This document shows positions 19,550 through 61,606 of a stretch of 64,000 nucleotides of DNA, one piece after another; position 1 is the stretch's first letter, and the number at the start of each line of letters is the position of its first letter. A model generated the notes under the pieces. That model saw only the letters and a list, made by a program, of their open reading frames with translations, did not search any database and had not been told where the DNA came from. The DNA comes from Chloroflexota bacterium (GTDB lineage Bacteria > Chloroflexota > Limnocylindria > QHBO01): positions 565 through 64,564 of the forward strand of contig JBQTHZ010000010.1 in NCBI GenBank assembly GCA_052388515.1, in the 5' to 3' direction. The translations under genes and the position numbers were made by a program.

Positions 19550-19676
19550 TTGCTGCGTCGGCAACTATCGGCCAATGAGCGCCCCTGGGAGCCGGCTCAG
19601 CCGTCGTCGCTTGCCACCACGGCAACGCACGACCGAAGTCCGGTTGCTCCGTCGCCGTTAGTTGCCGCTCCAGCAA
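19550..19676. repeat. array of three TTGC-N7-GCAA palindromic elements (19550-19564, 19611-19625, 19662-19676), spacings 61 and 51 bp
   Basis: TTGCTGCGTCGGCAA, TTGCCACCACGGCAA and TTGCCGCTCCAGCAA in the purD / UPF0182 intergenic region. The flanks (cgtTTGC...GCAAc) are similar to the other arrays. Confidence 0.7.
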
Positions 19677-19710
19677 ACGACTGATGCGCGGGACGCCGGC
19701 GGGGCTGACG

Positions 19711-22701
19711 CTACTCCCCGGTCAGGTCAGCAAGGGACTCGAGCACGGCTTCCAGCTCGTCGATCCGTTCCTGGTAGGTGCCGAGGTCACCCGCATCGAG
19801 CGCCGCCTGCGCCTCGCCGTAGAGGCGCTGGGCCTCGGCAACCAGGTCGGCCACGTTGGACGGCAGCTCTCCCGGTGACTCGTCCGGTGCGCCGGGCGAG
19901 GGTGACGGAGCCGGTGACTCGCCGGGATCGGTCGGCTCCGGGACCTCCGGGGGAGGTGGCTCGGCCTCGCCGAGGAGCTGGCGAAGGCCCTCCTCCACCG
20001 TCTCCGCGAACGCGACGCGTCGCTGGTCGGCCATGATCACCCGCACGAACTCGGGGAACGGGGCGCCCTCCGCCTGGAGGAAGATCGGCTCGACATAGAG
20101 GAGCCCGTCCTCGCCGATCGGCAGGACCAGCAGGTTGCCGCGCACGACCCGTGAGCCGGCGCTCGACCACAGGGTGAACTGCTCGCTGATGGCATCGTCT
20201 GCGCCGATGCGCCCCTCGATCTGCACCGGGCCCTGCGTCGAGGTGCCGGTCGGGAACTGGAACGCGATGCGCTCGCCGTAGACGCCGGGGTCCATGCGGG
20301 CCGCGACCCAGGCGATCATGTTCGGACGGTCCTCGGGGACCATTGGCTGGATGAGGACGAACTCGGCCTCGTCCTCGCCCGGGATGCGCATGATCACGTA
20401 GTAGGGCTCCATCGGCTGCCCGTTGCCGGCCACCACGTCCTCGGGGATCGCCCAGCGATCGTCCTCGTTGTAGAAGGTCGTGGCGCCGTTCTCGGTCGCC
20501 GGCAGGTGGTAGAGCCGGTAGGCCTCGTTCTGCGCGACGAAGAGGTCCTCGGGGTATCGCAGGTGCGCCTGCAGGCCCTCCGGCATCGCGGAGAGCGGCT
20601 CGAACAGGTCCGGGAAGATGCGGGCGTAGGCGGCCACGATCGGGTCGTCCGGATCGGCCAGGAAGAAGCGGACCGTGCCGTCATAGGCATCGACCACCAC
20701 CTTCACGCTGTTCCGCACGTAGTTCGCGCCGGCGAAGCGGCTGGTCGACGGGAGGGGCTGCGCATTCGGATAGCGGTTGCTGACGGTGTAGGCGTCCCAG
20801 ACCCAGAGCAGCCGGTCGTCGGCGCTGACGATGTACGGATCTCCGTCGTACGCCAGGAACGGGGCGATCTCGGGCACGCGCTCACCGATGGCGCGCCGGA
20901 ATAGCACCTGCGACTCATCGGTCAGCTGGTTGCTGATCAGCATGTTGAAGTCGCCGAAGCGAAGCGCGAAGAGCGCGCGCGCCAGGGGATTTCCGATCCC
21001 CACGCCGGTCGAGCCGTTCCAGACCGTCTCGGCCCCGGCCTCGCCGCCCTCGCTTCCGTCGGTATCGAGCGGATAGTCGAACTCCGCGGTCGTGGTCCCG
21101 GTGACGATGTAGGTGTCGGTCTCCTCGCCGAAGTAGATGCGAGGCTGGTCCAGCGGCAGCTGCGGATCGCGGTTGATGCCGCTGACCAGGTAGTCCGGGG
21201 TGCCCTGGTCCGTGACCGCGTCGACCGGCACGGCGGTGATGCCGTAGCCATGGGTGTAGACGAGGCGCTCGTTCGTCCAGGTGCGGCTCTCGCCGAAGCG
21301 TTCGACGTCCAGCTCACGCGCGCTCAGCATGATCTGGCGCTGTTCGTCCCCGATCTCGTAGCGGTCGATGTCGACGTCGGAGAAGGTGTAGTAGCGACGC
21401 AGGATCTGCTGCTGGCCGAAGGTCGTCAACAGGGGCCGGTAGTCCCACAGCCGCAGGTTGTCGATGGTGGCCGCATCGTCCACGAAGACCTCGCGGGTCA
21501 GATCCTGCTCGCCGGTGAAGCGCCGCTGCTCGATCGCGTCGAGGTCGAAGGCGCGCCGCGTCGAGGTGATGTGGTCGACGATGTACTCGCGCTCGACGTT
21601 GAGCTCGTTCGGGTTGACCTGCACCGTCTGCACGAAGCTCGGGTAGAGGCCGCCGACCAGGATCGACAGCACGATCCAGGCGCCGGCCGCCAGGCCGAGC
21701 AGCCACAGGGTGCGGAACCAGGTGTTGAGCAGCAGGACGGCGGCGGCAGCGAGGGCGACGACGGTCAGGATCACCGAAGCAGGGAGCTGCGCGTTGACGT
21801 CGGTGTAGAGCGCTGCCTGCACGCTCCCGCTCAGCCCGCGCGTGGAGTAGGTGAGCTCGGCGATATCGAGCTGGTAGCCCCCGGCGATCACGGCGAGCAG
21901 CAAGGCGCCGATGACCGACAGGTGCGCCCGCACCGGCGCGCTGAGGCGGAACTGCCACCGCAGTGCCCGCGCCGCGTAGGCGCCAAGTGTCAGCAGCCCG
22001 ATGACGATGAGGGTCGTCGATCCCCATCCGAGCAGGAATCGCCAGAACGGCAGGTCGAACACGTAGAAGCCGACGTCGCGGCCCAGCGTCGGATCGGTGA
22101 CGCCCCACTCGCCGCCATTCAGGAAGAGCAGCACGAGCTCCCAGTTGCCGCTCCACGCAGCGGCGGAGCCGAGCGACAGGAGGACCGCCACGGCCGTGAG
22201 CCCAATGGCGATCGCGCGAGACGCATCCGGCATCTCGATCCCACCCAACTCCCGCACCGGCGACTGCGGCGCGATGCGGCTCGCCAGCCAGATGCTGAGC
22301 AACGCCGGCACGAGCATGGCGACGAAGCCGATCGCGAACAGCGCCACCTGCGACCAGAGCCGCGTCTGGAGCACGTCGCGTCGACCGAGCGCGTCGTACC
22401 ACATGACGTCGCTGATCAGGTTGACGACACCACCGAGCAGACCGAGCACGACGAGCAGGGCCAGGATTCCGCCACCGATCAGCAGGTATCGGCGCCATGG
22501 CACGTCACCGCCCGCGATCGGTGGGAAGGTGGGCCCGTCACCGCCACCGTTCGTTCGACGTTGCCCTCGCTCCTTGTCGATCGGCGTCACGTTGCGCTCG
22601 CGACCTGCACGACGCTCGAAGGGACGGCCTTCCCGGCGAGCATCCGCCTCTTCCTGGCGGCGCTGAAGGTCCTCGAGCAGCTTGTCGAACCAGCTTGACA
22701 T
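19711..22701 (-). CDS. UPF0182 family large membrane protein
   Basis: ~996 aa with N-terminal TM helices and the conserved GRDVGFYVFDLPFWRF and YY.F.DVDIDRY blocks typical of UPF0182. The start is placed at MSSWFDKLL (ATG 22699-22701). Confidence 0.8.
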   Translation of the reverse strand: MSSWFDKLLEDLQRRQEEADARREGRPFERRAGRERNVTPIDKERGQRRTNGGGDGPTFPPIAGGDVPWRRYLLIGGGILALLVVLGLLGGVVNLISDVMWYDALGRRDVLQTRLWSQVALFAIGFVAMLVPALLSIWLASRIAPQSPVRELGGIEMPDASRAIAIGLTAVAVLLSLGSAAAWSGNWELVLLFLNGGEWGVTDPTLGRDVGFYVFDLPFWRFLLGWGSTTLIVIGLLTLGAYAARALRWQFRLSAPVRAHLSVIGALLLAVIAGGYQLDIAELTYSTRGLSGSVQAALYTDVNAQLPASVILTVVALAAAAVLLLNTWFRTLWLLGLAAGAWIVLSILVGGLYPSFVQTVQVNPNELNVEREYIVDHITSTRRAFDLDAIEQRRFTGEQDLTREVFVDDAATIDNLRLWDYRPLLTTFGQQQILRRYYTFSDVDIDRYEIGDEQRQIMLSARELDVERFGESRTWTNERLVYTHGYGITAVPVDAVTDQGTPDYLVSGINRDPQLPLDQPRIYFGEETDTYIVTGTTTAEFDYPLDTDGSEGGEAGAETVWNGSTGVGIGNPLARALFALRFGDFNMLISNQLTDESQVLFRRAIGERVPEIAPFLAYDGDPYIVSADDRLLWVWDAYTVSNRYPNAQPLPSTSRFAGANYVRNSVKVVVDAYDGTVRFFLADPDDPIVAAYARIFPDLFEPLSAMPEGLQAHLRYPEDLFVAQNEAYRLYHLPATENGATTFYNEDDRWAIPEDVVAGNGQPMEPYYVIMRIPGEDEAEFVLIQPMVPEDRPNMIAWVAARMDPGVYGERIAFQFPTGTSTQGPVQIEGRIGADDAISEQFTLWSSAGSRVVRGNLLVLPIGEDGLLYVEPIFLQAEGAPFPEFVRVIMADQRRVAFAETVEEGLRQLLGEAEPPPPEVPEPTDPGESPAPSPSPGAPDESPGELPSNVADLVAEAQRLYGEAQAALDAGDLGTYQERIDELEAVLESLADLTGE

Positions 22702-22938: not shown

Positions 22939-24657
22939 TCACTCCCACTCGATGGTGGCGGGTGGCTTGGAGCTGATGTCGTAGACGACGCGGTTGACGC
23001 CGGGCACCTCGTTCACGATCCGCGATGAGATCTTCGCGAGCACGTCGTACGGGAGCCGCGCCCAGTCCGCGGTCATGCCGTCATCGGAGGTGACCGCGCG
23101 GATGGCGACCACGTTGGCGTACGTGCGTCCGTCGCCCATCACGCCGACCGAGCGCACCGGGGTGAGGATGGCGAACGACTGCCACAGAGACCGATACAGC
23201 CCGGCTGCCTTGATCTCGTCGATTACGATCCAGTCGGCCTCGCGCAGGGTGTCGAGCCGCTCCGCCGTCACTTCGCCGATGATCCGGATGGCGAGCCCGG
23301 GCCCCGGGAACGGCTGGCGCTGGACCATCGCCTCCGGCAGCCCGAGCTGCACGCCGACCCGGCGGACCTCATCCTTGAACAGGTGGCGCAGCGGCTCGAT
23401 GAGCTTGAAGCGCAGGTCGGGCGGCAGCCCGCCGACGTTGTGATGGGTCTTGATCTTCTGCGCCGCCTTCGTCTCGGCCGTGGTCGACTCGATGACGTCG
23501 GGGTAGAGCGTCCCCTGCGTCAGGAAGTCGATCTGCCCCAGCTTCGCGGCCTCCTCCTCGAAGACGCGGATGAACTCGTCGCCGATGATCCGCCGCTTCT
23601 CCTCCGGGTCCTCGACGGCCGCCAGCCGCGCCAGGAACCGATCCCGAGCATCGACCATCACCAGGTTCATGCCGAGGTCCCGCTCGAAGGTGACGCGCAG
23701 CAGCTCCGATTCGCGCTTTCGCATCAGCCCATGGTCGACGTAGATGCAGGTCAGCTGGTCGCCGATGGCACGATGCACCAGCGTCGCCGCCACCGCCGAG
23801 TCCACGCCGCCCGAGAGCGCGCAGATGACGTGGCCGGCACCGACCCGCTCCCGGATCTCGGCAACGGTGGTCTCGACGAGGTTGGCCGCCGTCCAGTTCG
23901 GTCGCGCCCCCGCCACGCCGACGACGAAGTTGCGCAGGACGTCACGTCCGATCGGCGTGTGCACGACCTCGGGGTGGAACTGGATGCCGTACAGGTTGCG
24001 GGCGGGATCGGCGAGGCCGGCGTACGGAGTTGCATCGGTCTGTGCCGTCGCGCGGAAGCCCTCAGGCGGTCGGAGGATGGCGTCGCCGTGGCTCATCCAC
24101 ACCGGCTGCTCGCGCTCGATGCCGGCAAACAGCCCATCGGGCTCGTTGATCGCCACCGTCGCCGGGCCGTACTCGCGCTTCGCCGATGGCACCACCTCGC
24201 CGCCCAGCTCGTGGGCCATCAGCTGAAGTCCGTAGCAGATTCCCAGCACCGGGATGCGGCCGGACCAGACGGCCGGATCCGCCTTCGGAGCACCGTCGTC
24301 ATAGACCGATGACGGACCACCCGACAGGATCACCGCCTTGACGCCTCGCCGCTCGAGCTCCGTCATCGCCGTGTCGTGCGGGAGGAGCTCGGAGTACACG
24401 TTGAGCTCGCGCACGCGCCGAGCAATCAGCTGGGCGAACTGGCTGCCGAAGTCGAGCACCACGACCGTGTCGGGCGGTTCGGCTGCCTCGGTCTCGATGC
24501 GCTGCGGTGGCGCGGCGTGGAGCGCCTGTTCGAGGTAGGCCTCGACCTCGGCATCGTCCGGGGCGAGGACGCGATGGCCCGCATTCGCCGCCTCGCCGTG
24601 GACCGTGCGCCCTCGGCCAGGCCGGCGCTGATCGTGCGTGTCGGATTCGTCGGCCAC
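22939..24657 (-). CDS. guaA: GMP synthase (glutamine-hydrolysing)
   Basis: GATase ([25 protein letters not shown]), PP-loop ATPase (SGGVDS) and C-terminal dimerisation domain. The ORF has a ~60-aa N-terminal extension, so the start is uncertain. Confidence 0.9.
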
Positions 24658-24761
24658 TGGTCTCAGTGTATCGGCCTCAGCCGACTGCGGAGCACGCGTT
24701 CCGCTCGGCGCGAGTCACGGCGCGAGCGCGACCAACGCCGCACCCAACGCGGCCGGCCCCC

Positions 24762-24900
24762 TTGCACCCCAGCGCAAGCATCTACGAGGATGCGGCCCCA
24801 ATCACGGCAGTCTGCTCGAGCTGGCGCCACCGCTTGCGGCTCGGGGCAAATTCAGGTCGTGATGAGCCCGAACCCCGTCGTTGGTTGCTTCTCGGCACAA
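24762..24900. repeat. degenerate copies of the same element (TTGC-N8-GCAA at 24762-24777 and 24834-24849; TTGCTTCTCGGCACAA at 24885) spaced 72 and 51 bp
   Basis: In the intergenic region between guaA start and the AAA ATPase gene end. Arms are conserved but the spacer is 8 nt. Weaker than the other arrays. Confidence 0.35.
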
Positions 24901-24922
24901 TCAGCGGAAACGCGTGGTCCGC

Positions 24923-26143
24923 TCAGCCGTCGAGCCATTCGCGAGGGTGGGCGAGGAGAAAGTCCTCGATCGGGATGCCGCCGGCGCCGACCACCAGGGA
25001 GCGCGCGCCGCGGTGCGCGTGCGTGAAGGCGATCAAGCCGCGGCTGGCTCGAGCATGGCCGCTGCGCACCTCGATCGCCGTCGGCTGATCGTGTGCCCGC
25101 ATCAGCTTTCCGGGCCGGATGACCCAGTCGACCTCGTCGTTGCCGTCGCGCCACCAGGTCAGCTCGTCGGGATCGGCGTGCGCCCAGAGATGGGCACCGA
25201 TGGCGGTCTCCACCAGGCGCGACCACGCCTCGTGATCGGCCTTCGTGCGCGCGAGGGTGGTCCGGGCGGTGGCGGTCATGAGCGCCGTGTTGAGCGCCAG
25301 GAGCTTCGGGCTCGACGCGCGGCGGCGGACGGCCGAGCCAGAGTACTTGCCGATGCCGGTCACCATGCCGGCGCCACCCAGCAGCTCGAGGTAGTGGGCG
25401 AGCGTGACGGTGTTGCCCGCGTCGGTCAGGGTCCCGAGCATCTTCGTATAGGACAGGACCTGACCCGAGTACGAGCAGGCCAGGCGGAAGAGCTGCCTCA
25501 GCAGTGCGGGCTTCTCGACGCGGTTCAGCATCAGGATGTCGCGCGACAGGTTCGTCTCGACGATCGAGTCGAGGATGTACTCCTCCCATCGGTCATGGCT
25601 CTTGATCAGGCGAGCAGCGCCGGGGTACCCGCCATAGAACAGGTAGGTGTCGAGATCCCAGCTGAAGGCGTCGCGCATCTCTGCGAAGGTCCAGTGCGTG
25701 ACGCGCACGATCTCGAAGCGGCCGGCCAGGCTGTCCGACAGGCCCTGCCGGACGAGCAGCGGCGCCGATCCCAGGAGCATCACCCGCAGTGGAATGCCTG
25801 ATGACGTGTCCTCGTCCCAGAGCTGCTTGACGACATCGGACCAGTCGCGGATCTTCTGGACCTCGTCGAGCACCAGCAACCCCCCTGCGCGTCCGCCCAT
25901 CGATGCCTGTCGGCGGCCGATCGTCCACTGCGTGTAGATCCAGCCGATGTCCTCCGGATCCGGCGCATCCGCGGACGCGAAATGGCCGGGAATGCCGATG
26001 GCGTCCATGACCTGCCGCGCGACCGTGGTCTTACCCACCTGTCGCGGGCCAGCGAGCACCTGGATGAACTGGCGCGGCTCGTGCGCGCGCTCCAGGATGG
26101 TCTCGAAGATCGGGCGCCTGTAGACTTGCGGCTTGCGGCTCAT
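24923..26143 (-). CDS. AAA-type ATP-binding protein (AAA_14 + DUF4143 architecture)
   Basis: A Walker A motif (GPRQVGKTT), a DExx-like LVLDEVQ box and a C-terminal domain resembling DUF4143. Confidence 0.8.
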   Translation of the reverse strand: MSRKPQVYRRPIFETILERAHEPRQFIQVLAGPRQVGKTTVARQVMDAIGIPGHFASADAPDPEDIGWIYTQWTIGRRQASMGGRAGGLLVLDEVQKIRDWSDVVKQLWDEDTSSGIPLRVMLLGSAPLLVRQGLSDSLAGRFEIVRVTHWTFAEMRDAFSWDLDTYLFYGGYPGAARLIKSHDRWEEYILDSIVETNLSRDILMLNRVEKPALLRQLFRLACSYSGQVLSYTKMLGTLTDAGNTVTLAHYLELLGGAGMVTGIGKYSGSAVRRRASSPKLLALNTALMTATARTTLARTKADHEAWSRLVETAIGAHLWAHADPDELTWWRDGNDEVDWVIRPGKLMRAHDQPTAIEVRSGHARASRGLIAFTHAHRGARSLVVGAGGIPIEDFLLAHPREWLDG

Positions 26144-26155
26144 GCACTCATTCGG

Positions 26156-26194
26156 CTGAGTGGAATTACTCAGTGTTGTGAGTAAGTTTACTCA
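26156..26194. promoter_or_regulatory. two adjacent TGAGT-N6-ACTCA palindromes (26157-26172, 26179-26194) in the promoter region of the AAA ATPase gene
   Basis: CTGAGTggaattACTCAG and TGAGTaagtttACTCA, 22 bp centre to centre, in a locally AT-richer stretch immediately upstream of ATG 26143 (minus strand). Candidate operator pair. Confidence 0.45.
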
Positions 26195-26255
26195 CTCGAT
26201 GCGAGCGGACGCGCTCGAGCGCGTCACCAGCGGCGCATCGCTCACTCGTCCCAGA

Positions 26256-26579
26256 TCACGCGCCGAGCCGGACGGCGGTGCCGGACGCGGTCACCATGAG
26301 CATGCTGCCACCCTGGCCGACCGTCTCGTAGTCGAGGTCGATGCCCACGACGGCATCGGCTCCACGCGTCGTGCCCTCGGCAGTGAGCTCGTCCATGGCG
26401 ATCTCCCGCGCCCGGCGCAGCTCCTCTTCGTAGGCGCCCGACCGTCCGCCGACGATGTCCCGCACGCCCGCGAACAGGTCGCGGACGATGTTCGCGCCGA
26501 GAATCGCCTCGCCGGTGACGACCCCCAGGTATTCAGTGATCGCTCGCCCGTCCACGCTCGGCGTGGTGGTCAGGATCAT
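26256..26579 (-). CDS. YbjQ/UPF0145 family heavy-metal-binding-like protein
   Basis: 107 aa and highly conserved throughout ([38 protein letters not shown]). Confidence 0.8.
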
Positions 26580-26959
26580 GATCGGTCCTCCAGCATGTAG
26601 AACTCACTGAACTCGCGACAGCGGCCGTCCGGCGCGAACTGCAGGAGGTAGGCGTTGTGATAGGTCCGTTGCGGATCGGCCTCGGTCGCCTCGTAGCGGC
26701 TGAACCCGATGGCTACGGCTCGATCGCCTTCCACTGCGTACGGCTCGTAGCGCGCTTCCCAGGTGCCCGGCGCATCGCGTTCCTCGAGCCATGACTCGGC
26801 GATGGCGGCGTTGCCGGTGGCAGTCTGCTTCGGGTCGCTGTACGGCCGATACCGATAGACGGCTTCCTCGGTGAACAGCGCCTTGATGAGCTCCGGATCA
26901 TTGGCTGCCCATGCCTCGACGTATCGGTCCAGCCAGGTCTGCACGTCAGATCGTTCCAT
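26576..26959 (-). CDS. SnoaL-like / NTF2-fold protein
   Basis: 127 aa with the [23 protein letters not shown] pattern typical of SnoaL-like/DUF4440 proteins. Confidence 0.6.
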
Positions 26960-26976
26960 GCGTCGATGCTACGCCG

Positions 26977-28017
26977 TCAGGCGTACAACGTGGCGAGCCG
27001 GTGCGCCTCCTCGTCCAGTTCGTGCCGCTCTGACGGCGTGAGGTCGCGGAGCGGCGCGAGTTGGATCTCGGAATGCTCGAAGCGCCACGTGCCGGCCACC
27101 TGCCCGTCAACCAGGAAGGTGTTGTGCGAATGCGGCGTCTTCGTGTTGAAGATGAGCGGCCGATACTCCTCGGGGAGCACCTGCGTTCGGCGAGCGTGGA
27201 CCAGGAGCATCGCGTCCCACACCGCCAGGAAGCGGGGTGGTGCGGGCGTCTCAGGATCCGGCAGCGGAGCACCCGGCAGATCGACCAGCGTCTTGCCGGC
27301 TTCGTCGTGCAGCGCGCGCAGCTCCATGCCATCGGCAACATGCTTCATCTGGCCAACGTTGAGTCCCATCCAGCTGGCGACGTCCCTGAGTGGCGCCGGG
27401 CCGAACGCGCCGAGGTAGCGGCGGATGAGATGCTCGATCCCGTCGTCCTCGCTGACCTCAACCGGAGGAATCCATTGATCGGCGGGGCCGTAGAGGTCCG
27501 CCCGGCGTTGCTCCCATGTCCCCGATGGTGGAACCCGGACCATATCGACCCACAGCCCAGCCCAGTTGGCCGAGCGCGGCGGGAAGCCGCGTGCCACCAA
27601 ACGTTGCGTCAGCTCATTCATGCGCAGCGGCCCGCTCGCGAGCTCGTCGCGGACGGCAACGGCGACGGCCTCCATGTCGGTGGTGCGGACGTCGCGCTGA
27701 ACCCTTGTGTACCACTCGCGGTTGACGCGCCGGATCCCGGCCATCATCGGCCAATAGTCGGCGGCCGAAACGGTATGGATGGTCGCCCGCATCATCGTCG
27801 CCTGGATGGCCCGTCGCTCCTCGAGAGCCTGCGTCAGCATCGGCCTGTCGAAGTCATGCATGCGCGACCACAGGCCGATGTAGCCCGCCGGGGCGTACTG
27901 CATCTGGATCCCGCCCATCTGCTCCATGACCTCGGTCAGGCTCAGTGCCGATCGCTCCAGGAGGGATTGGCGCGCGAGGAGCGCGCGGTTCAACGCGCGG
28001 GTTGTCACCGGCTTCAT
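26977..28017 (-). CDS. AlkZ/YcaQ-like winged-helix DNA glycosylase family protein (paralog 1)
   Basis: N-terminal MKPVTTRALNRALLARQSLL... is co-linear with the second copy at 37940. The family resemblance (HTH_42 / interstrand-crosslink glycosylase AlkZ/YcaQ) rests on length (~345 aa) and the conserved N-terminal block. The upstream 31-aa ORF extension is ignored. Confidence 0.7.
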   Translation of the reverse strand: MKPVTTRALNRALLARQSLLERSALSLTEVMEQMGGIQMQYAPAGYIGLWSRMHDFDRPMLTQALEERRAIQATMMRATIHTVSAADYWPMMAGIRRVNREWYTRVQRDVRTTDMEAVAVAVRDELASGPLRMNELTQRLVARGFPPRSANWAGLWVDMVRVPPSGTWEQRRADLYGPADQWIPPVEVSEDDGIEHLIRRYLGAFGPAPLRDVASWMGLNVGQMKHVADGMELRALHDEAGKTLVDLPGAPLPDPETPAPPRFLAVWDAMLLVHARRTQVLPEEYRPLIFNTKTPHSHNTFLVDGQVAGTWRFEHSEIQLAPLRDLTPSERHELDEEAHRLATLYA

Positions 28018-28049
28018 CGATGGCCGATGGTAGCCCTCGGATTCCGCCG

Positions 28050-28236
28050 TTGCCGAAGGAGCAACTAACGACAATGGAAGCGCCCTTGACTCGGCGGGCG
28101 TTGCTCGCATCGCAACATGCGACGGTCAAGCGCCGGTTCCGAGCGCCAACTCCGACAATAGTTGCCGGGCTGGCAAACGGCCGGGACCAGTGACGACGAA
28201 CAGCGCCAACTCCGTCGTTCGTTGCCGCGCCGGCAA
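28050..28236. repeat. array of four TTGC-N7-GCAA palindromic elements (28050-28064, 28101-28115, 28162-28176, 28222-28236), spacings 51, 61, 60 bp
   Basis: TTGCCGAAGGAGCAA, TTGCTCGCATCGCAA, TTGCCGGGCTGGCAA and TTGCCGCGCCGGCAA in the intergenic region between guaB3-like stop and AlkZ-like paralog 1 start. The last two units are ~45-bp direct repeats (agcgccaactccg...gttgccg.gc.ggcaa). Confidence 0.7.
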
Positions 28237-28267
28237 GCGCGTCGGAGACCGGGAGCGCGCGGAGCGG

Positions 28268-29431
28268 CTATTCGCTGCCGGCGAGCTGCCAGGACTTGCC
28301 CTCGGTGGCGATCGACGGCGCGATCACCATTTCCACCGCGTGCATCTCGCGAATGGTGCGCACCCCGAGCGCGGCCATCGACTGGCGCAGCGCGCCGACC
28401 AGGTTCTGGGTGCCGTGGGTCGTCTCCGACGGGCCGAACAGGATCTGCTGGAGCGGCAGACGTTCGCCGATGCGAATACGCGTCCCTCGCGGCAGCGTGG
28501 GCGAGGGAGCGGCCATGCCCCAGTTGAATCCGCGGCCGGGCGCCTCGATGGCCCCCGCAAGTGGTGAGCCGAGCATGACCGCATCGGCTCCCGAGGCGAT
28601 CGCCTTGGCAATGTCGCCGCCGGTCTTCATGCCGCCATCGGTGACGACGGGGACGTAGCGGCCGGTCTCGCGCTCGTATCGATCACGGGCCGCGGCCACC
28701 TCGAGGGTGGCAGACACCTGGGGAACGCCGATGCCGAGCACCTCGCGCGTCGTGCATGCGGCACCCGGCCCGACCCCCACGAAGATACCCGCTGCGCCCT
28801 GGTGCATGAGCTGGTAGGCGGCCTCACCGCTGACCGTGTTCCCTACGAGCACCGGCAGCTGGAGGCCGCCGGTCAGATCGGCAAGCGAGAGCACGCGCGT
28901 CGAGGTCGAGATGTGTCGAGCGGACGACACCTGCGACTGGACGAGCAGCAGATCGGCGCCGGCTTCCGCCGCCAGCTCGGCATGATGCCACGCCGCGGCG
29001 GGGGTCGTCGCCACCGCGGCGATCGACCCCTGTGCCTTGATGCGGGTGATGATCGCCGTGATGAGCTCGTCGCGCACCGGTTGCTCGTAGGCCTGCGCGA
29101 GGATGTGGGCCGCGGCCTGCCCGCTCTCGGCGGCCGCGACCCGCTCGATGAGCGAGTTGGCGTCCTCGTAGCGTGTGTAGATTCCCTCCAGGTTGACGAC
29201 CGCCAGCCCACCGTGCCGGCTCATGCGCACCGCGAAGTCCGCATCGGCGACGGCATCCATGGCCGCCGCGAGGAACGGGATCTCGAGTCGAAAGCCGCCG
29301 ATCTCGACGCCAACGTCGACCTCGGCCGGATCCGCAGTCACAGCACCCGGAACGAGCGCCACTTCGTCGAAGCCGTAGGCACGTCGCAAACGGGCTCCGG
29401 TCACGTCGCGGACGGGTGCCTGGTCGATCAA
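28268..29431 (-). CDS. IMP dehydrogenase family protein lacking the CBS subdomain (GuaB3-like)
   Basis: 387 aa IMPDH-like TIM barrel (GVDVGVEIGGFRLEIPFLAAAMD...GIGVPQ..) without the CBS pair. This resembles actinobacterial GuaB3-type paralogs. Confidence 0.8.
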   Translation of the reverse strand: MIDQAPVRDVTGARLRRAYGFDEVALVPGAVTADPAEVDVGVEIGGFRLEIPFLAAAMDAVADADFAVRMSRHGGLAVVNLEGIYTRYEDANSLIERVAAAESGQAAAHILAQAYEQPVRDELITAIITRIKAQGSIAAVATTPAAAWHHAELAAEAGADLLLVQSQVSSARHISTSTRVLSLADLTGGLQLPVLVGNTVSGEAAYQLMHQGAAGIFVGVGPGAACTTREVLGIGVPQVSATLEVAAARDRYERETGRYVPVVTDGGMKTGGDIAKAIASGADAVMLGSPLAGAIEAPGRGFNWGMAAPSPTLPRGTRIRIGERLPLQQILFGPSETTHGTQNLVGALRQSMAALGVRTIREMHAVEMVIAPSIATEGKSWQLAGSE

Positions 29432-29450
29432 CGGGACCTCCTCGGATAGG

Positions 29451-29480
29451 AAAAGGCCCGCGCGGCAGAGCGGCGCGGGC
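29451..29480 (-). terminator. rho-independent terminator (minus strand): GCCCGCGC-9nt-GCGCGGGC followed by UUUU
   Basis: On the minus strand the 8-bp GC stem-loop is followed by a T4 tract. It sits downstream of the photolyase remnant / small membrane protein genes and upstream of the guaB3-like start. Confidence 0.6.
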
Positions 29481-29572
29481 GGCGTTCGGCGTGGGTCGCG
29501 ATGACGGCGCGGATCGGATGCACGATTGGTGATCGCTGCGGCTTTGGCGAAGTATACGGCCGCGAACCTGGC

Positions 29573-29809
29573 TCATCGCGACGAAATGGCCCGGTAGCGT
29601 GCCAGCGTGCGCTGACGCGCATCGGCGTGGTCGAGGATGGGCGCTGGATAGTCACGCGGCGGCTCGGGTGCCCGCCACGGCTCGTGGATGTGCTCGTCCG
29701 GCAGATGCGCGAGCTCCGGCACCCATCGGCGCACGTAGGCCCCACGTGGATCGAACTTCCGTGAGGCGCAGATCGCGTCGAAACCAGGCGATCGCGCGGC
29801 GCGGCGCAT
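29573..29809 (-). pseudogene. remnant of a deoxyribodipyrimidine photolyase gene (C-terminal ~65 codons only)
   Basis: The translation ...KFDPRGAYVRRWVPELAHLPDEHIHEPWRAPEP..DYPAPILDHADARQRTLARYRA matches the extreme C-terminus of CPD photolyases/cryptochromes (KFDP.G.YIR.WLPEL...HEPW...DYP.PIV.H). No N-terminal photolyase or FAD domains are present upstream. Confidence 0.6.
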
Positions 29810-29852
29810 CGGTCACGCGCGCGCCCGCGATCGGATCACGAGTCGTGGATCC

Positions 29853-30116
29853 TCAGCGTTGGGAGGGGCGTACCAGGCGCAGCATGAGCGCAAGATTGAT
29901 GATCGTGGGAGCCCACAGGCCGACGAAGATCGCTCCGTGCTTGTGCCCACGCAGGTAGAGGCCGATGGCCGCCGCGATCGAGACGCCCGTCGCGGCGATG
30001 TACGCGTCGGTCGGGATCTGCTCGGCCAGTTGCTCGGCCTGCCGCATGCCGGGTGCATGGCGCTCGCCGCCGAGCAGCGCGTCGAAATCGGTCCTGTCGG
30101 TGATGGTCTGGGTCAT
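29853..30116 (-). CDS. small hypothetical membrane protein (87 aa)
   Basis: Two predicted TM helices (GVSIAAAIGLYL, IFVGLWAPTIINLALML) with a start at ATG 30114-30116. The long ORF extension upstream is Arg-rich junk. Confidence 0.4.
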   Translation of the reverse strand: MTQTITDRTDFDALLGGERHAPGMRQAEQLAEQIPTDAYIAATGVSIAAAIGLYLRGHKHGAIFVGLWAPTIINLALMLRLVRPSQR

Positions 30117-30184
30117 GGTGCGGAGCCTCGTGGGGTTTGACATCCCCCGAGTCGCACGTCGCGTGCCGGGTTGCCGATCACCGA

Positions 30185-31303
30185 TCACCGAGGGGCGGGA
30201 CGCGGCTCCCCTACGGTAGCGTCCGTCGACGACTGGTCGTCGAGCGAGCGGCGGATGCTGTCGCGGATCTCTTCGGCGCGCGACCGTGCCGGCATCGGCT
30301 CGGGCATCTCCATCGGCGCATCCGTCGGCGTCGGCGCGGGCTCGTCGGAGACGTGGCGTGGCGCCGAGCGCACCGCGCGACGCACGGCCAGCTCGCGGTC
30401 CTCGACGATTCGCTCCGCGATGCGGCGGACCTCGGTCGTGAGCCACAGGTAGGCGGTCGAATCGAGCGTGTAGTCGGCCTCCGCGAACGCGTGGATGCGG
30501 CCATCGCGCTGGAGCGAGCTGATCTGCTCGAACTGGGCCAGCGACCCGCGCTGGTAGACGCCGAATGCCAGTCCACCGTTGGCTCGCACGACCGACCACG
30601 CAGGGACATCGGACGGGCCGTCGGCGATGTAGATCATGTGCTCGAATGGCACACGACGAAGATCCGCCGAGAGTGCCGAGTTGACGTGGATCTCGGGCCG
30701 CTTGTTCGTGCCCTTGTTGATTTCGAACAACGCGCGCGTCTTGCTGGTGTTGTCGATCTGGTATCCGAGGGCCGTGATCTCGCTGCTCGGAAAGAGCTGC
30801 CGCTGCTCGGGCCTGACGTAGCCAGGCGGGTGGTGCGCCTCGATGAACTCGCACGCCCACACGTCCTCCACGTATCGGCGAATGGCGCTGCCCTCGATCA
30901 TGGGCCGCAGGCCGGTGCTGACCACGTAGTGCTCGAGCGTGACGTCCGCGCGCTGGAAGGCGGGCTCCTCCTGGACCGAATCGCGCAGCCTGGCAAGAAA
31001 GTCGGGCATCCCGGGGTGATAGGTCAGCTCGGCGCCGAGCTCGAGCAGCGTCGCATTCGACAGCCCCTTGAACACGCCTGCGCGGACGTACTCGAGGATG
31101 TGGTTGAGATACAGCGAGTCATCGGCGACACGCCGGGCGCCGTGGGCCAGGTAGAAGTCACCGAGCGCGTCGACCTCGTCCCAGAACGCACGTTCGTCCA
31201 CCCCGTAGCGCGCGAACAGCGGCGACTGCATGTTGCCCGGGATGAGCGTCTTGTCGAAGTCCCAGACGACGGCAATCACCGTCTGGCTGAAGGGTCCTGC
31301 CAT
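30185..31303 (-). CDS. HAD-superfamily hydrolase
   Basis: HAD motif I (VVWDFDKTL), motif III/IV (IYIADGPSDV) and a long cap region. The start is placed at MAGPFSQ (ATG 31301-31303). The C-terminal ~60 aa are low complexity. Confidence 0.7.
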   Translation of the reverse strand: MAGPFSQTVIAVVWDFDKTLIPGNMQSPLFARYGVDERAFWDEVDALGDFYLAHGARRVADDSLYLNHILEYVRAGVFKGLSNATLLELGAELTYHPGMPDFLARLRDSVQEEPAFQRADVTLEHYVVSTGLRPMIEGSAIRRYVEDVWACEFIEAHHPPGYVRPEQRQLFPSSEITALGYQIDNTSKTRALFEINKGTNKRPEIHVNSALSADLRRVPFEHMIYIADGPSDVPAWSVVRANGGLAFGVYQRGSLAQFEQISSLQRDGRIHAFAEADYTLDSTAYLWLTTEVRRIAERIVEDRELAVRRAVRSAPRHVSDEPAPTPTDAPMEMPEPMPARSRAEEIRDSIRRSLDDQSSTDATVGEPRPAPR

Positions 31304-31438
31304 GCGACTCGATGTGCGGGCTGTCAACGGAGCGTGCAGTCTAGCCGTGCTCGTCAACGCTGCCTCATGGCCCAATGGTCCCGTGGAGGACGACAGCCTT
31401 GCCGACGAGAACTCCTCCGCGGATTCGTGGCCGGTCAT

Positions 31439-32344
31439 TCAGCCGGCGGCAAGCTCCACGCCTGCGGCGAGCGCATCCGCGCGAAGCTCCGCGAGAGGCT
31501 CATCCGAGTCGGCGGATGCCTGGAGGAGGCCGATGACGCGCGATACCCCCAGTTCGGAATAGTCGGCCAGGAGGCCCTGACGTGCCGAGCCCGGCTCGCG
31601 CCAGTCGGGCATCCCCCACCAGGCATGGACCGATACGGCAAGACTGTCCGGGTCTCGCCCGATCTCCTCGCAGCGGGCACGGATGGTGGGCAGCGCCTCC
31701 CGCACCTCGTCCGGCGCGAGGCCGTCGAGGTTCAGCTCATCGGCGTAGCGTGCGGCGAGCCGCCACGTCACGTTCGGCCCATTGCCGCCGACCATGATCG
31801 GCATGCCGCTCTCCTGGATCGGCTTCGGCAGGTTGCGAGCATCCTTCACGCTGTGATTCTCACCGTCGTAGGTGGCGTGCGTCGTGCGGCCCGGCTCGAG
31901 CATGCGTGTCACGACCTCGAGCGCGTCGTGCAGCATGCCAAGGCGCTCGTTCGTCTCCGGAAAGCCATACCCATAGGCGAGCCACTCTTCCTCCTTCCAG
32001 CCGGCACCGATCCCGAGCTCGAATCGCCCACCGGAGATCGTATCGAGGGTCGAGGCCATTTTGGCCGTCAGCGCAGGGTTGCGGAAGCCATTGCAGATGA
32101 CGATCTGACCCAGCCGAACGCGTTCGGTGAGCGCCGCCACGGCGGCGAGCGACGTGAATGACTCGAAGGTCAGCTCGTCGGTCGGCTTCGGCACGGTGTG
32201 GAAGTGATCGAACAGCCAGACCGACTCGAACCCGAGCCGATCGGCAAGCTGCGCGACCTCGACCGTGCGTGCCCACGCGCGCTGCGGCTCCCAGCCATCG
32301 TACTCACCCGTCCATCCCTGCGGAGCGATGACTCCCAGCTTCAT
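31439..32344 (-). CDS. LLM-class flavin/F420-dependent oxidoreductase (luciferase-like monooxygenase family)
   Basis: 301 aa TIM barrel with a luciferase-like pattern (GFESVWLFDHF, ...LGIGAGW). The subfamily and cofactor are not assignable from sequence alone. Confidence 0.8.
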   Translation of the reverse strand: MKLGVIAPQGWTGEYDGWEPQRAWARTVEVAQLADRLGFESVWLFDHFHTVPKPTDELTFESFTSLAAVAALTERVRLGQIVICNGFRNPALTAKMASTLDTISGGRFELGIGAGWKEEEWLAYGYGFPETNERLGMLHDALEVVTRMLEPGRTTHATYDGENHSVKDARNLPKPIQESGMPIMVGGNGPNVTWRLAARYADELNLDGLAPDEVREALPTIRARCEEIGRDPDSLAVSVHAWWGMPDWREPGSARQGLLADYSELGVSRVIGLLQASADSDEPLAELRADALAAGVELAAG

Positions 32345-32386
32345 GCTTCGTTCTCCCTGCGGAACCGGATCGCCCGCGGTCCCGAC

Positions 32387-33691
32387 TCAACGGACGATCA
32401 TCTGGGCACGTTCCGGGCCAACGCTGACGTGGGAGATCGGCACGGCGGCGAGCTCCTCCAGCCGCTCGACGTACGCACGCGCCGGTGCCGGCAGGTCGGA
32501 CCAGGAGCGGCAGGCGGTCGTATCGGCCTGCCATCCTGGAAGCTCTTCGTACACCGCTTCCAGCCGCTCGTAGACCGACGTCGACGCGGGAACGGTGGTC
32601 ATCTCGCGGCCATCCACCGGATCTCGATAGGCGTATCCGACACGGATGCGATCGAAGCCGTCGAGAACATCGAGCTTGGTGAGCGCGATGCTCGAGTATC
32701 CGGCCAGCCGCACACTGAATCGGACGGCCACGGCGTCGTACCAGCCACATCGTCGCGCCCGGCCCGTCGATGTGCCGTACTCCTCGCCGCGCTCGCGGAG
32801 TGCCTCGCCCTCGGCATCGGTGAGCTCCGTCGGGAGTGGCCCGGCGCCGACGGCCGTCGTGTACGCCTTGGCGACGCCGAGGACCTGGTCGATCGCCACC
32901 GCGGGCAGGCCGGCGCCGAGGCTCGCGCCGCCCGGGATCGGCGACGAGCTGGTCACGTAGGGGTAGATGCCCCAATCGAGGTCACGCATCGTGCCGAGCT
33001 GGCCCTCGAGCAGGACGCGGTCGCCACGATCCACTGCCGCGTTCACGAGGGCCTGTCCGTCCACGACATGTCCGGCGAGGCGTTCGCCCGCGCCGAGATA
33101 GTCGTCCATGATGCGTCCCTCGTCCGTCGCAGCCGCGATCTCATCGGCCAGCTCATCGGCAGCGGCCGGGTAGCCGGCGACCACGCGCCGGATGCGGGGC
33201 AGCGTTTCGGCAAGGCGGGCACGGAAGCCGTCGGGCTCGACCAGGTCGATGACCCGGATCCCGCGCCGGGCGACCTTGTCGACATAGGCTGGCCCGATGC
33301 CGCGCGACGTCGTTCCCAGCTTTGCAGCGCCGCGCTCACGCTCCTCGAGCTGATCGAGAAGGACGTGGTAGGGCATGACGAGGTGGGCTCGATCGCTGAT
33401 GTACAGGTTTTCGCAGGCGAACCCCGCTGCCACGAGGCCGTCGAGCTCGCTGACCAGCGCTGGCGGATTGATGACCACGCCGTTGCCGAGGAGGTTGCGC
33501 GTGCGGGCGTAGAAGATGCCCGACGGGATCAGGTGAAGCTTGAAGTGCCCGTGCGGGTTGACCACGGTGTGCCCGGCGTTGTTGCCACCACCGTAGCGGA
33601 TGACGAGGTCGGCCTCCTCTGCCAGGTAGTCGACCACTCTGCCCTTTCCCTCATCGCCCCATTGGGCGCCGACAACGGCGGTGACGGACAT
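32387..33691 (-). CDS. purA: adenylosuccinate synthetase
   Basis: 434 aa beginning MSVTAVVGAQWGDEGKGRVVD... with GGGNNAGHTV, the canonical PurA signature. Confidence 0.95.
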   Translation of the reverse strand: MSVTAVVGAQWGDEGKGRVVDYLAEEADLVIRYGGGNNAGHTVVNPHGHFKLHLIPSGIFYARTRNLLGNGVVINPPALVSELDGLVAAGFACENLYISDRAHLVMPYHVLLDQLEERERGAAKLGTTSRGIGPAYVDKVARRGIRVIDLVEPDGFRARLAETLPRIRRVVAGYPAAADELADEIAAATDEGRIMDDYLGAGERLAGHVVDGQALVNAAVDRGDRVLLEGQLGTMRDLDWGIYPYVTSSSPIPGGASLGAGLPAVAIDQVLGVAKAYTTAVGAGPLPTELTDAEGEALRERGEEYGTSTGRARRCGWYDAVAVRFSVRLAGYSSIALTKLDVLDGFDRIRVGYAYRDPVDGREMTTVPASTSVYERLEAVYEELPGWQADTTACRSWSDLPAPARAYVERLEELAAVPISHVSVGPERAQMIVR

Positions 33692-33927
33692 GGCGTGACG
33701 ACGGCGACCTCAAGGTGCGTGGGACGCGGCCATCCTACCGCCGTCCGGATGGCTGCCCGCGCCGGATTCGACCGATATCTCGGTCTCGGCCAGGCGTTGT
33801 GGCTGCTCACGCGCGGCCATCACCCTGGGTGCCGTCCGGGATTTCGGTCACTCCCGGCCCGGGCGGCTGGCTTGGGCGGGCGTTGGCCGATCCATCGGAT
33901 CCGGCCGCGCTCACGCGCGCGCAGAGC

Positions 33928-37929: not shown

Positions 37930-37939
37930 TCAAAGCTGC

Positions 37940-39121: not shown

Positions 39122-39141
39122 CGGCTCGGCAGGACCGGACG

Positions 39142-42603: not shown

Positions 42604-42629
42604 AAATGACGGACGCGCTGACGTCATTT
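42604..42629. promoter_or_regulatory. inverted repeat AAATGACG-N10-CGTCATTT upstream of the 42793 gene
   Basis: An 8-bp perfect arm palindrome in a lower-GC stretch ~165 nt upstream of the ATG. Candidate operator. Confidence 0.3.
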
Positions 42630-42792
42630 GGCGGATGACAATGACCACCTCGCCAAGGCCCATCGTGGGCAACAACGTGACACGACCGAGCGATGTTCGC
42701 ACTCCATCGGCCCGGTCTCGACGTCAACGGCACTCGGCTGCCCGCCGATCGCCCCGAGACGGTCGGCTCAGCCAATCGAAGAGGAGACCCAC

Positions 42793-45576: not shown

Positions 45577-46400
45577 GCGGCCCCCTCCTGCTCCGCCCAC
45601 GGCCGCAGCTCGAGCGCGTGCACCGAGAGGAGCGCATCCCGCACCTCGGCGGCCAGCTCGGCAGCGCGTGGGTGACCCAGTAATTCGGTGGGTCGCGGGC
45701 GAGGCAGATCCACGTCCACGATGCGCGCCACGCGGCCCGGCCGCGGTGTCATGACGACCACCCGGTCGCCGAGGGCGATCGCCTCGCTGACGCTGTGGGT
45801 GACGAGGACCACCGTCCGGCGCTGGTCCAGCCACAGCCGCTGCAGCTCGCCGTCGAACGTCTCCCTGGTCAGGGCGTCGAGCGCGCTGAACGGCTCGTCG
45901 AGCAGGAGCACTGGCGGGTCGCCGATGAGCGCCCGGGCCAGCGCGGCGCGCTGCGCCATTCCACCCGAGAGCTCCCGCGGCAACAGGCTCGCGGCACCCG
46001 CGAGGCCGAGCCGGTCGAGGGCGCGTGCCGCGCGCTTGCGCCGCTCGCCCGACGGAGCGCCGGACAGCTCGAGCGGAAGGGCGACATTCTCGAGCGTCGA
46101 GCGCCACGGCACCAGCCTCGGCTGCTGGAAGGCGAGTCCGACCCTCCCGTCACCTGGCAGCGGTGCTCGCCCATCCACCGAGACGGCACCCGTCGTCGGC
46201 GAGAGCAGGCCGGCCACGAGCCTCAGCAGGGTGCTCTTGCCGCATCCGTTCGGCCCGATGATGACCGTGAATGAGCCGGCCTCGATCTCCAGGCTGCAGC
46301 CGGACAGGGCCTCGACGCCGCCGCCCCGCGCGCCGAAGCGCACGCCGACGTCGTCGATCCTGACGTCGAGGCCGGCGAGTGCGGTCGGCTGCAAGCTCAT
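45573..46400 (-). CDS. ABC transporter ATP-binding protein
   Basis: Walker A GPNGCGKST, signature LSGGMAQR and Walker B LLLDEP. Confidence 0.9.
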   Translation of the reverse strand: MSLQPTALAGLDVRIDDVGVRFGARGGGVEALSGCSLEIEAGSFTVIIGPNGCGKSTLLRLVAGLLSPTTGAVSVDGRAPLPGDGRVGLAFQQPRLVPWRSTLENVALPLELSGAPSGERRKRAARALDRLGLAGAASLLPRELSGGMAQRAALARALIGDPPVLLLDEPFSALDALTRETFDGELQRLWLDQRRTVVLVTHSVSEAIALGDRVVVMTPRPGRVARIVDVDLPRPRPTELLGHPRAAELAAEVRDALLSVHALELRPWAEQEGAA

Positions 46401-47650: not shown

Positions 47651-47677
47651 CTCGTGGTCGATGAAGTCGAGCAGTGC

Positions 47678-52534: not shown

Positions 52535-52540
52535 TCGCCG

Positions 52541-53734: not shown

Positions 53735-53768
53735 AGTCGCTCACGAGCCCAGCGCACGCGGCGCGCCG

Positions 53769-58184: not shown

Positions 58185-58188
58185 CCCC

Positions 58189-59841: not shown

Positions 59842-59882
59842 CTTCGGCCGTCATCGCAATCGAACGAGTCGCGCGCAATGAC

Positions 59883-61217: not shown

Positions 61218-61445
61218 TCTACGCAGCCGTCGGGTCCCGACCCGGGCAACGTTCAGGTTTCTTAAGGTGCGGCAAGCCCACGGTTTAGATCGGGCCCCTA
61301 GTGTTCAAGCTGCGAGTTGGAGATCCCTAGGGTTTCTACCTCCACCCTCCCTCCTTCGAGCCCCGGTGTCATTGGGCGGGCACCGGGGCTCGTGCTATGT
61401 CCCGGACCGCCACCATGCGCGCAAGCCCGCCTTCACCGCGCCGTT

Positions 61446-61606
61446 TTGCTGGCCCAGCAACTAATGCGTTTGCTGGCCCAGCAACTAATGGTGGACTTCG
61501 GGCCACGAACCGGGCTTCCGTCGTCGCCTGTTGCTGGCCCACCAACTCAGAACCAGCGAGGCCGCCGAACGGGTGTCTCCACTGCAGATAGTTGCTCCCC
61601 CAGCAA
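61446..61606. repeat. array of four TTGC-N7-GCAA palindromic elements (61446-61460, 61470-61484, 61531-61545, 61592-61606), spacings 24, 61, 61 bp
   Basis: TTGCTGGCCCAGCAA x2 (a near-perfect 24-bp tandem duplication cgtttTGCTGGCCCAGCAActaatg), TTGCTGGCCCACCAA and TTGCTCCCCCAGCAA. All lie in the divergent intergenic region upstream of the MBL hydrolase gene. Confidence 0.7.

Follow-up and report, generated by a model that had tools for sequence, protein, structure and literature searches.

A dispersed three-box intergenic element built from TTGC-N7-GCAA palindromes in a Limnocylindria genome, and its possible role as a protein-binding array

The DNA considered here, hereafter the window, is a stretch of 64,000 nucleotides from a Chloroflexota bacterium (GTDB lineage Bacteria; Chloroflexota; Limnocylindria; QHBO01; GenBank assembly GCA_052388515.1, contig JBQTHZ010000010.1, positions 565 to 64,564 of the forward strand), and our subject is a 15-bp palindrome, TTGC-N7-GCAA, that recurs between its genes. 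The window has a GC content of 67-74%, and its UPF0182 protein is 89-93% identical, over the best-matching segment only, to proteins of Candidatus Limnocylindria/Chloroflexota metagenome-assembled genomes. It is a housekeeping stretch that carries purM, purF, purL, purQ, purS, purC, purB, purE, purD, and the UPF0182 gene, then guaA, genes for AAA/DUF4143, YbjQ, SnoaL, AlkZ-like, and IMPDH-like proteins, purA, dnaB, rplI, and lexA, as well as a second AlkZ-like gene, dinB, folD, hutH, hutU, tgt, and argS. Among the approximately 55 open reading frames scanned, there are no transposase, integrase/recombinase, LysR, or Lrp/AsnC genes and no helix-turn-helix gene beside an array that lacks another explanation; PurR and cas genes are likewise absent from the window. 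A preliminary description had reported eleven of these palindromes, all intergenic and spaced by 51 or 61 bp. It is clear from our results that they are the conserved modules of a dispersed composite element of three boxes, sometimes four or five, set 51 or 61 bp apart (Table 1). The element is apparently an undescribed family of intergenic repeats, as a narrow full-text search found no published description of the motif string or of Limnocylindria repeats.

Ten exact matches to TTGC-N7-GCAA are present in the window, where 0.45 would be expected; the maximum in shuffled sequences was 2, and none of 100 shuffles reached 10. The eleventh reported copy, at 61531 (TTGCTGGCCCACCAA), has a mismatch in one arm. 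The length of the center is strict, with no matches for N3 to N6, two for N8, one for N9, and none for N10 to N12. Both N8 matches (24762 and 24834) fall within one spacer, and the N9 match, at 37672, falls within the coding sequence of lexA and is apparently accidental. Once the true start codons of the AlkZ-like gene (ATG at 28017) and the MBL hydrolase gene (ATG at 61686) are used, every TTGC-N7-GCAA site is indeed intergenic. Weight matrices built from metagenomic copies only (see below) picked exactly 11 sites in the window, at 10-37 bits compared with null maxima of approximately 7-13, and there were no further sites clearly above the null in the 64 kb. The degenerate N8 versions reported at 24762-24900 are present, but score at most 4.7 bits and are therefore weak, so that this region is best described as a probable decayed or variant copy of the element. 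In 1.1 Mb from 75 related loci, TTGC-N7-GCAA occurs at chance level, with 5 matches, similar to other spacings.

The recurring flanks atagTTGC and GCAActaa of the preliminary description are a single flank seen on opposite strands, and for this reason each locus can be read as one composite three-box element, R-M-F, in which two inverted outer boxes enclose a symmetric middle box. The R box is cgTTGC-N7-GCAACTAa, the F box is its inverse, tTAGTTGC-N7-GCAAacg, and the M box is GTCG-N4-TTGC-N7-GCAA-N4-CGAC. Pyrimidines predominate at position 5 of the box and purines at position 11. This organization into a fixed unit of 127 or 137 bp goes beyond the preliminary description. No sigma-70 promoter was predicted in a scan of the first element (W1), and extracytoplasmic function (ECF)-type and sigma-54 motifs gave no fit by eye.

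Table 1. Three-box elements and related arrays in the window (positions are those of the window; distances are between the starts of adjacent boxes)
Feature	Positions	Boxes	Distances (bp)	Outer span (bp)	Additional module	Neighbors and remarks
W1	19550-19676	R 19550-19564; M 19611-19625; F 19662-19676	61, 51	127		UPF0182 stop 19711; purD start 19479
W2	28050-28236	R 28050-28064; M 28101-28115; F 28162-28176	51, 61, 60	127 (R-F)	F' 28222-28236, duplicate of F in a 60-bp unit, 82% identity over 38 nt (family D17)	AlkZ-like start 28017; IMPDH-like stop 28268
W3	61446-61606	R 61470-61484; M 61531-61545 (one arm mismatch, CCAA); F 61592-61606	24, 61, 61	137 (R-F)	R' 61446-61460, perfect 24-bp tandem duplicate of R	Divergent Hvo_1808-like gene; MBL hydrolase ATG 61686
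Probable decayed or variant copy	24762-24900	TTGC-N8-GCAA at 24762 and 24834; TTGCTTCTCGGCACAA at 24885-24900				Upstream of guaA; end 22 nt from AAA/DUF4143 stop
Possible second family, same architecture	33772-33898	CCGAT-N2-ATCGG type: CCGATATCTCGG 33772; CCGGGATTTCGG 33836; CCGATCCATCGG 33887	64, 51	127		Upstream of purA

Copies of the element are also found elsewhere. A metagenome scan with the pattern TTGC-N7-GCAACTA, 85-105 nt, TAGTTGC-N7-GCAA returned 24 loci, including 12 high-GC matches with the R-M-F layout; low-GC coding repeats (L077, L078, and L100) and a different element with terminal inverted repeats (L084, L088, and L092) were set aside. In all 12 high-GC copies, the middle box, which was absent from the search pattern, lies exactly 50-52 or 60-62 bp from both of its neighbors. 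An alignment of these copies with the three window elements (alignment A3, 15 elements) shows shared R, M, and F boxes, spacers that are otherwise unalignable, and R-to-F start-to-start distances of 111-113 or 122 bp. Among 40 adjacent box distances, 16 fall at 50-52 bp and 23 at 60-62 bp, with none at 53-59 bp and one accounted for by the 24-bp duplication in W3, so that the reported 51/61-bp spacing held for 39 of 40 distances when more copies were collected. Between the conserved flanks, the cores of the spacers measure 16 or 26 nt (±1), and their sequence is free. Pairs of GTTGC-N7-GCAAC boxes from viral contigs served as a control and showed broad distances with no 51/61 preference, and the multiples of three that dominate there point to coding repeats. 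When viral sequences were scanned for the complete R...F pattern, the single match was a coding repeat, and plasmid and phage BLAST searches with W2 gave no match.

The family is not species-specific, as had been proposed for the case of a REP-like (repetitive extragenic palindromic) element, since metagenomic sequences from many organisms contain this box at this spacing. Full boxes (YAG-TTGC-N7-GCAA-CTR) at 50/61/50 bp are also present in contigs of 51-62% GC, and judged by these sequences the family appears to reach beyond high-GC Limnocylindria-like genomes. One such array (L096) has upstream of it a truncated and weak match to 5S rRNA (22.9 bits, under the gathering cutoff) and a feature that by eye resembles a terminator, and the array itself gives a weak rliB-like Rfam match (19.5 bits, E 0.12). 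The contig with the L089 array also carries whiA and cggR. A five-box array (L076, 35-274; distances 61, 52, 51, and 61 bp) arose via tandem duplication of a 164-bp M-F-R unit, which indicates that arrays grow by module duplication, and at another locus (L099) a box pair lacks the middle box. In phage-like contigs, TTGC-N7-GCAA pairs occur 50 bp apart in intergenic DNA; one of these contigs (L119) has a further pair, 108 bp apart, beside an Xre-type repressor gene, which is the sole suggestive neighbor in such contigs and does not suffice to name a protein family.

Two other kinds of repeat were encountered in the course of these searches. Viral contigs L101, L103, L105, L118, L123, and L129 contain dense arrays of 5-8 GTTGC-N7-GCAAC boxes, 18-24 bp apart (e.g., GTTGCCGAATCAGCAAC), an arrangement reminiscent of iterons, centromeres, or operators built on a similar type of box. 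The element set aside from the metagenome matches (L084 125-248, L088 3030-3156, and L092 1618-1741; 36-40% GC) is 124-127 bp long and has near-perfect terminal inverted repeats (GCTAACTATTTTGCAAAATGTGCAACTAA) with unrelated interiors, and it is a separate family resembling miniature inverted-repeat transposable elements (MITEs).

The genes that flank pattern-found copies, encoding signal peptidase, MarR, a kinase-like AAA protein, DAO, CbiQ, Rieske, DUF1905/OmdA, PIN, and DnaJ proteins, are unrelated in function, and no gene context is common to the window and these metagenome loci. These unrelated flanking genes rule out a purine regulon. Most elements have an outer box situated 11-44 nt past a stop codon, and some copies are located between convergent genes (L079, L083, and also L099). 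By our own tally, approximately 15 of the outer boxes within 50 nt of a gene face a 3' end, compared with a single one facing a 5' end, that of the AlkZ-like gene. The proposal that the palindromes are operators for the adjacent genes does not survive these placements. Arrays or boxes do recur in the orthologous intergenic regions of a few relatives, but these spacers are variably occupied and, across the purD, guaA, and IMPDH spacers of approximately 70 relatives, boxes are mostly absent. In the window, the UPF0182-purD spacer is occupied by the TTGC array; in the closest relative (L035), this spacer has a degenerate N8 version, in L038 and L069 just one box, and in L001, L002, L004, L005, L013, and L061 palindromes of the CCGAT(A/C) type, and in other relatives it is empty. 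Downstream of the IMPDH-like gene, only the window and L051 have an array in the spacer. Because of this variable occupancy, a conserved local operator is ruled out, and the pattern fits a dispersed repeat with turnover, so that the likeness to REP-type repeats drawn in the preliminary description is borne out in this respect.

The same architecture is found with other arms. In L003, GTGC-N7-GCAC boxes, with GTAG-N4 just before them, lie at 9687, 9737, and 9808 (50 and 71 bp apart) and again at 16480, 16541, and 16603 (61 and 62 bp apart, 138 bp in total), the latter 39 nt past the purE stop codon. L051 has AGTC-N7-GACT at 4342, 4392, 4454, and 4504 (50, 62, and 50 bp), and L005 has CCGAT-N2-ATCGG at 1354, 1404, 1468, and 1518 (50, 64, and 50 bp), the type that also makes up the possible second family in the window. 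A histogram of same-arm 4-N7-4 pairs over the relatives was too sparse to show a general peak, and only individual arrays can be pointed to. A constant architecture with interchangeable dyad arms suggests cognate protein-site pairs.

Whether the conserved form is a folded strand or duplex DNA can be addressed from the variable centers and the spacers. Within the box, Watson-Crick pairing occurs at 22 of 54 sites for positions 5/11 (19.2 expected), at 15 for 6/10 (18.6 expected), and at 14 for 7/9 (16.3 expected). A local hairpin in each box is rejected, with no excess complementarity and a covariation of 0.103 compared with 0.110 for shuffled data in the 15-element alignment, and so is a three-way-junction RNA in which the spacers are hairpinned and the N7 centers act as junction strands (0.110 compared with 0.109). 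Pairing between the two spacers, S1 and S2, is likewise rejected (mean z -0.44), and the spacers have no self-structure (z -0.55 and -0.23). As the spacer cores have neither mutual complementarity nor self-structure, the fold stability of whole elements comes from the palindromic boxes themselves. Spacers of exact length with no conservation of sequence or pairing are not predicted for a folded RNA or single-stranded DNA, and a length that is kept exactly, in steps of one helical turn, therefore points to protein phasing on B-DNA, as torsional phasing predicts.

The reading that we favor, although we would put it at somewhat less than an even chance, is that the elements are helically phased, cooperative binding arrays on duplex DNA for a predicted dimeric protein, placed at gene ends and not serving as switches for their neighbors. 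The earlier suggestion of sites for a dimeric DNA-binding protein is strengthened by the invariant arms, the variable centers that do not covary, the strict N7 with one additional nucleotide tolerated, the quantized spacing, and the sequence-free spacers. A dimer of one sequence-specific protein of the helix-turn-helix type would bind each box, which is 15 bp long or, in the case of the middle box with the GTCG/CGAC tetrads included, 31 bp. With allowed spacings that differ by one helical turn, the three dimers could touch one another and bend or wrap approximately 130 bp. At the ends of transcription units, the arrays may be architectural or roadblock (boundary) sites or simply tolerated selfish repeats, and they spread and decay in the manner of REP-type repeats and bacterial interspersed mosaic elements (BIMEs), through gain and loss in spacers, tandem duplication of modules, and the emergence of sister families with other arms. 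It is thus the binding protein and the biological role of the arrays that we infer here.

The closest mechanistic precedent is Ss-LrpB, of the Lrp/AsnC family, as an analogy that does not establish membership of the elements in that system. The consensus box of Ss-LrpB, 5'-TTGCAAAATTTGCAA-3', is itself TTGC-N7-GCAA, a 15-bp dyad with four conserved base pairs per half-site; its own operator holds three regularly spaced boxes on which three dimers bind cooperatively, with approximately 100 bp wrapped, and its box center tolerates one additional base pair, while the loss of one abolishes binding (PMC1802622, PMC2995911, PMC4046817). The window elements share both the 15-bp dyad and the three regularly spaced boxes, and this tolerance is paralleled by the presence of N8 matches beside the ten N7 matches and the absence of any at N6 or below. 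They differ in that Ss-LrpB is archaeal (Sulfolobus solfataricus) and has a single autoregulatory operator, whereas here there is a dispersed family, mostly at gene 3' ends, and in that the middle box adds the GTCG/CGAC tetrads.

Several points weigh against a protein-binding array. Ss-LrpB requires an A+T-rich center, where it contacts the minor groove, whereas the centers in Limnocylindria are G+C-rich and variable, and A+T-rich centers are found in the lower-GC arrays only. No candidate for the binding protein emerged among the approximately 55 open reading frames of the window that were scanned, and neither the window nor the Limnocylindria loci yielded an Lrp/AsnC gene in a tblastn search, which is a weak and local test. 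At 10.5 bp per turn, 51 and 61 bp correspond to 4.9 and 5.8 turns, neither of them a whole number, and of the phasing just the difference of one turn between the two spacings is robust. The scan pattern fixed the R and F flanks and an R-F gap of 85-105 nt, and totals outside 106-126 were invisible to it. Whole elements fold below shuffled sequences, equally on both strands (mean z approximately -2.7), and R pairs with F in most of the predicted folds, and for these two reasons a long hairpin form is viable. For such a hairpin, with R and F paired and M at the apex, the covariation is 0.177 compared with 0.153 in shuffled alignments, with 23 of 500 shuffles reaching 0.177, a signal that is suggestive at most given the stated false-positive rates of the tool. 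Finally, a boundary or roadblock function is purely conjectural.

In genomic behavior, the closest kinds are BIMEs and REPINs (REP doublets forming hairpins), with their fixed-distance inverted doublets, mosaic arrays, and lineage-specific variants. REP, BIME, and ERIC repeats, which come mostly from Proteobacteria, have a history of forty years, and what they do is still a matter of debate. The BIMEs of E. coli are mosaics of palindromic units in alternating orientation, with two classes of linker length and a variable number of modules; they lie at the ends of transcription units, are bound by integration host factor (IHF), gyrase, and Pol I, and are made of units that are stable G+C-rich hairpins. 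The elements described here share the mosaic arrays, the alternating orientation, the two linker classes, the variable module number, and the location at transcription-unit ends, but differ in the sequence and size of the unit and in the absence of such hairpins, and to our knowledge a strict 10-bp quantization with sequence-free linkers is not a described feature of BIMEs. ERIC/IRU (approximately 127 bp for ERIC), Correia, BOX (modular as A-B(n)-C), and RUP are intergenic, MITE-like imperfect palindromes, which the elements resemble in size, imperfect overall palindromy, intergenic location, and modularity; those repeats are conserved over their full length, whereas here just three short boxes and the spacer lengths are.

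A REPIN- or MITE-like non-autonomous mobile element, with R and F as inverted terminal repeats that form an approximately 127-nt single-stranded DNA hairpin moved by a RAYT (REP-associated tyrosine transposase, Y1) or other transposase encoded elsewhere, is a real possibility, although on the whole an unlikely one. As in the REPINs and REP-RAYT systems of Pseudomonas and Enterobacteria, the elements are dispersed, extragenic, and built from short palindromic units inverted at a fixed distance, which in the REPINs of P. fluorescens is 71 or 110 bp, and in both cases the spacers are less conserved than the units and lineage-specific sequence variants exist (PMC3116915). The R and F boxes have a (T/A)TAG head by the palindrome, recalling the GTAG head of REP, a motif that also precedes the L003 boxes. 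The pairing of R with F and the fold stability on both strands already mentioned, the location near 3' ends, the gain and loss at orthologous spacers, the arm variants between lineages, and the many copies near contig ends agree with such an element. The R and F boxes also resemble terminal inverted repeats, but MITE copies are similar along their full length, and the interiors here are unalignable between copies. Further, REPIN spacers hold hairpin potential through compensatory changes (PMC3116915), and the spacer cores here have neither hairpin capacity nor S1/S2 complementarity. REP units are conserved over at least approximately 16 bp and fold as hairpins, whereas only 4+4(+3) bases are fixed here, pairing is limited to 4-5 bp per box, the variable centers do not covary, and the R-F covariation is not significant. 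The window has no near-identical dispersed copies, no target-site duplication was seen by eye in the element flanks, and REPINs have nothing that corresponds to the middle box. For a single strand, it is not obvious what a 10-bp quantum in spacers that lack structure would mean. No Pfam transposase is present in the window, and a tblastn search with IS200 TnpA, a weak test, found no Y1 transposase in 1.2 Mb of fetched loci.

We consider it distinctly less probable that the elements are transcribed RNA structures, located in 3' untranslated or intercistronic regions, that stabilize or terminate the upstream mRNA, or that they are small RNAs. Elements begin 11-44 nt after stop codons, both in co-directional pairs and between convergent genes, where a palindrome would work both ways; predicted folding energies of -43 to -79 kcal/mol lie below those of shuffled sequences, and a hairpin resembling an intrinsic terminator follows the L089 array. 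Yet the z-scores are equal on both strands and so carry no strand signal, none of the structure models gains covariation support, the spacers are unstructured, and invariant stems with variable "loops" are the reverse of what is typical of functional RNAs. W3, moreover, lies between divergent gene starts. No T-tract intrinsic terminator was predicted in W1, the sole element region scanned. A known RNA family is rejected, as neither 19480-19720 nor 28010-28280 gave an Rfam 15 covariance-model match even at E <= 1.

Core-type sites of a tyrosine recombinase, in which inverted arms (YAGTTGC / GCAACTR) would surround a 7-bp crossover region that sets partner specificity, are very unlikely. Core sites of the lambda and Xer types have 7-4/7-7 geometry and a similarly variable 7-bp center, which the center of exactly 7 bp recalls, as do the full 21-bp boxes (TAG-TTGC-N7-GCAA-CTA) of the lower-GC arrays and the identical centers of the two L099 boxes. 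The window nevertheless has no integrase or recombinase gene, dozens of dispersed sites would destabilize the chromosome, and recombination systems of this type are not known to use regular 51/61-bp arrays that lack intervening cassettes. Gene-specific operators of a local purine, DNA-repair, or LysR-type regulator for purD, guaA, the AlkZ-like gene, and the MBL hydrolase gene, suggested by three window arrays upstream of the purD, guaA, and AlkZ-like starts within a large purine cluster and by a 4-N7-4 geometry that is compatible with LysR-type T-N11-A boxes, are largely refuted and hardly credible given the unrelated and convergent flanking genes, the preference for 3' ends, the mostly empty orthologous spacers, and the lack of LysR and PurR genes in the window. 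The link to LysR made in the preliminary description falls with them, and that description was right to exclude a CRISPR array, in which identical direct repeats of at least 23 bp alternate with unique spacers of constant length. Here, only 4+4 bp are conserved around a variable center, the R and F boxes run in opposite orientations, the spacers come in two lengths, and the window has no cas genes.

Returning to a binding array on duplex DNA, a bolder form of this reading, which we regard as improbable though less so than a transcribed RNA, is that the arrays are a new class of chromosomal boundary element in Limnocylindria and some lower-GC bacteria. Phased arrays of at least three boxes past the ends of transcription units would each be wrapped by an oligomer of a dedicated protein and would block transcription in both directions, insulate, or organize domains in genomes where canonical terminators are scarce. 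For a roadblock, the stoperators of mycobacteriophage L5 offer a precedent; they are repressor sites dispersed in short intergenic regions, where the bound protein blocks elongating RNA polymerase; they differ in being single, asymmetric 13-bp sites of a phage, compared with phased triple dyad boxes on a chromosome. If the boundary-element class were real, its parallel box families (TTGC-N7-GCAA, GTGC-N7-GCAC, AGTC-N7-GACT, and CCGAT-N2-ATCGG) would imply protein-site pairs that diversify and replace one another.

The family is unusually informative in that conservation is confined to the arms of the boxes and the exact lengths of the spacers, which points to a protein-DNA architecture rather than a hairpin, and it offers a precise and testable target of a 15-bp box, three per array, with a freedom of one helical turn. 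Should a cognate protein exist, it would be either a novel factor, associated with the nucleoid or acting at boundaries, or the enzyme that maintains a repeat system of a new kind, and the sister families with swapped arms would be a natural experiment in the co-evolution of proteins and their sites. The elements also break metagenome assemblies and are potential lineage markers.

Other features were observed in the surroundings of the elements. Next to W1, a TAGACT/TACACT hexamer (19489-19494, minus strand) lies approximately 7-11 nt upstream of the purD ATG and is kept at the same position in most of approximately 15 relatives inspected (L001-L069); it resembles the -10 box of a transcript with little or no leader. 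Between the Hvo_1808-like surface-protein gene and W3, there is a perfect 11-bp G+C-rich stem-loop (61358-61391; GAGCCCCGGTG...CACCGGGGCTC), followed on the minus strand by a purine-rich GAAGGAGGGAGGG tract. The purine genes form an unusually complete supercluster (3212-19479 and 22939-33691), with purM, purF, purL, purQ, purS, purC, purB, purE, and purD and then guaA, the IMPDH-like gene, and purA, which is broken up by genes for zinc-ribbon proteins, a GGDEF-HD protein, and MgtC. Farther along, an SOS-like cluster (37276-40422) consists of lexA (37276-37929), the second AlkZ-like glycosylase paralog (37700-39121), and a DinB-type polymerase (39142-40422). The sole Rfam match in the window is an FMN riboswitch (RF00050, 46475-46637, minus strand, 79.7 bits), downstream of which are genes for an ABC-transporter ATPase (45573-46400) and an NMT1/THI5-like binding protein (43844-45637), and together these may constitute a riboflavin-related uptake system. 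The open reading frame at 42628-43770, whose product has no Pfam or NCBIfam match, contains a 114-bp tandem repeat (43315-43710, approximately 3.4 copies, 93% matches). Short in-frame tandem repeats, 6/18/30-bp repeats of the GACGGC type at 63030-63099 and four copies of the 9-bp GGAGGAGCC at 63393-63430, lie in or beside the gene for a surface protein with a SpaA/prealbumin fold (62581-63654).

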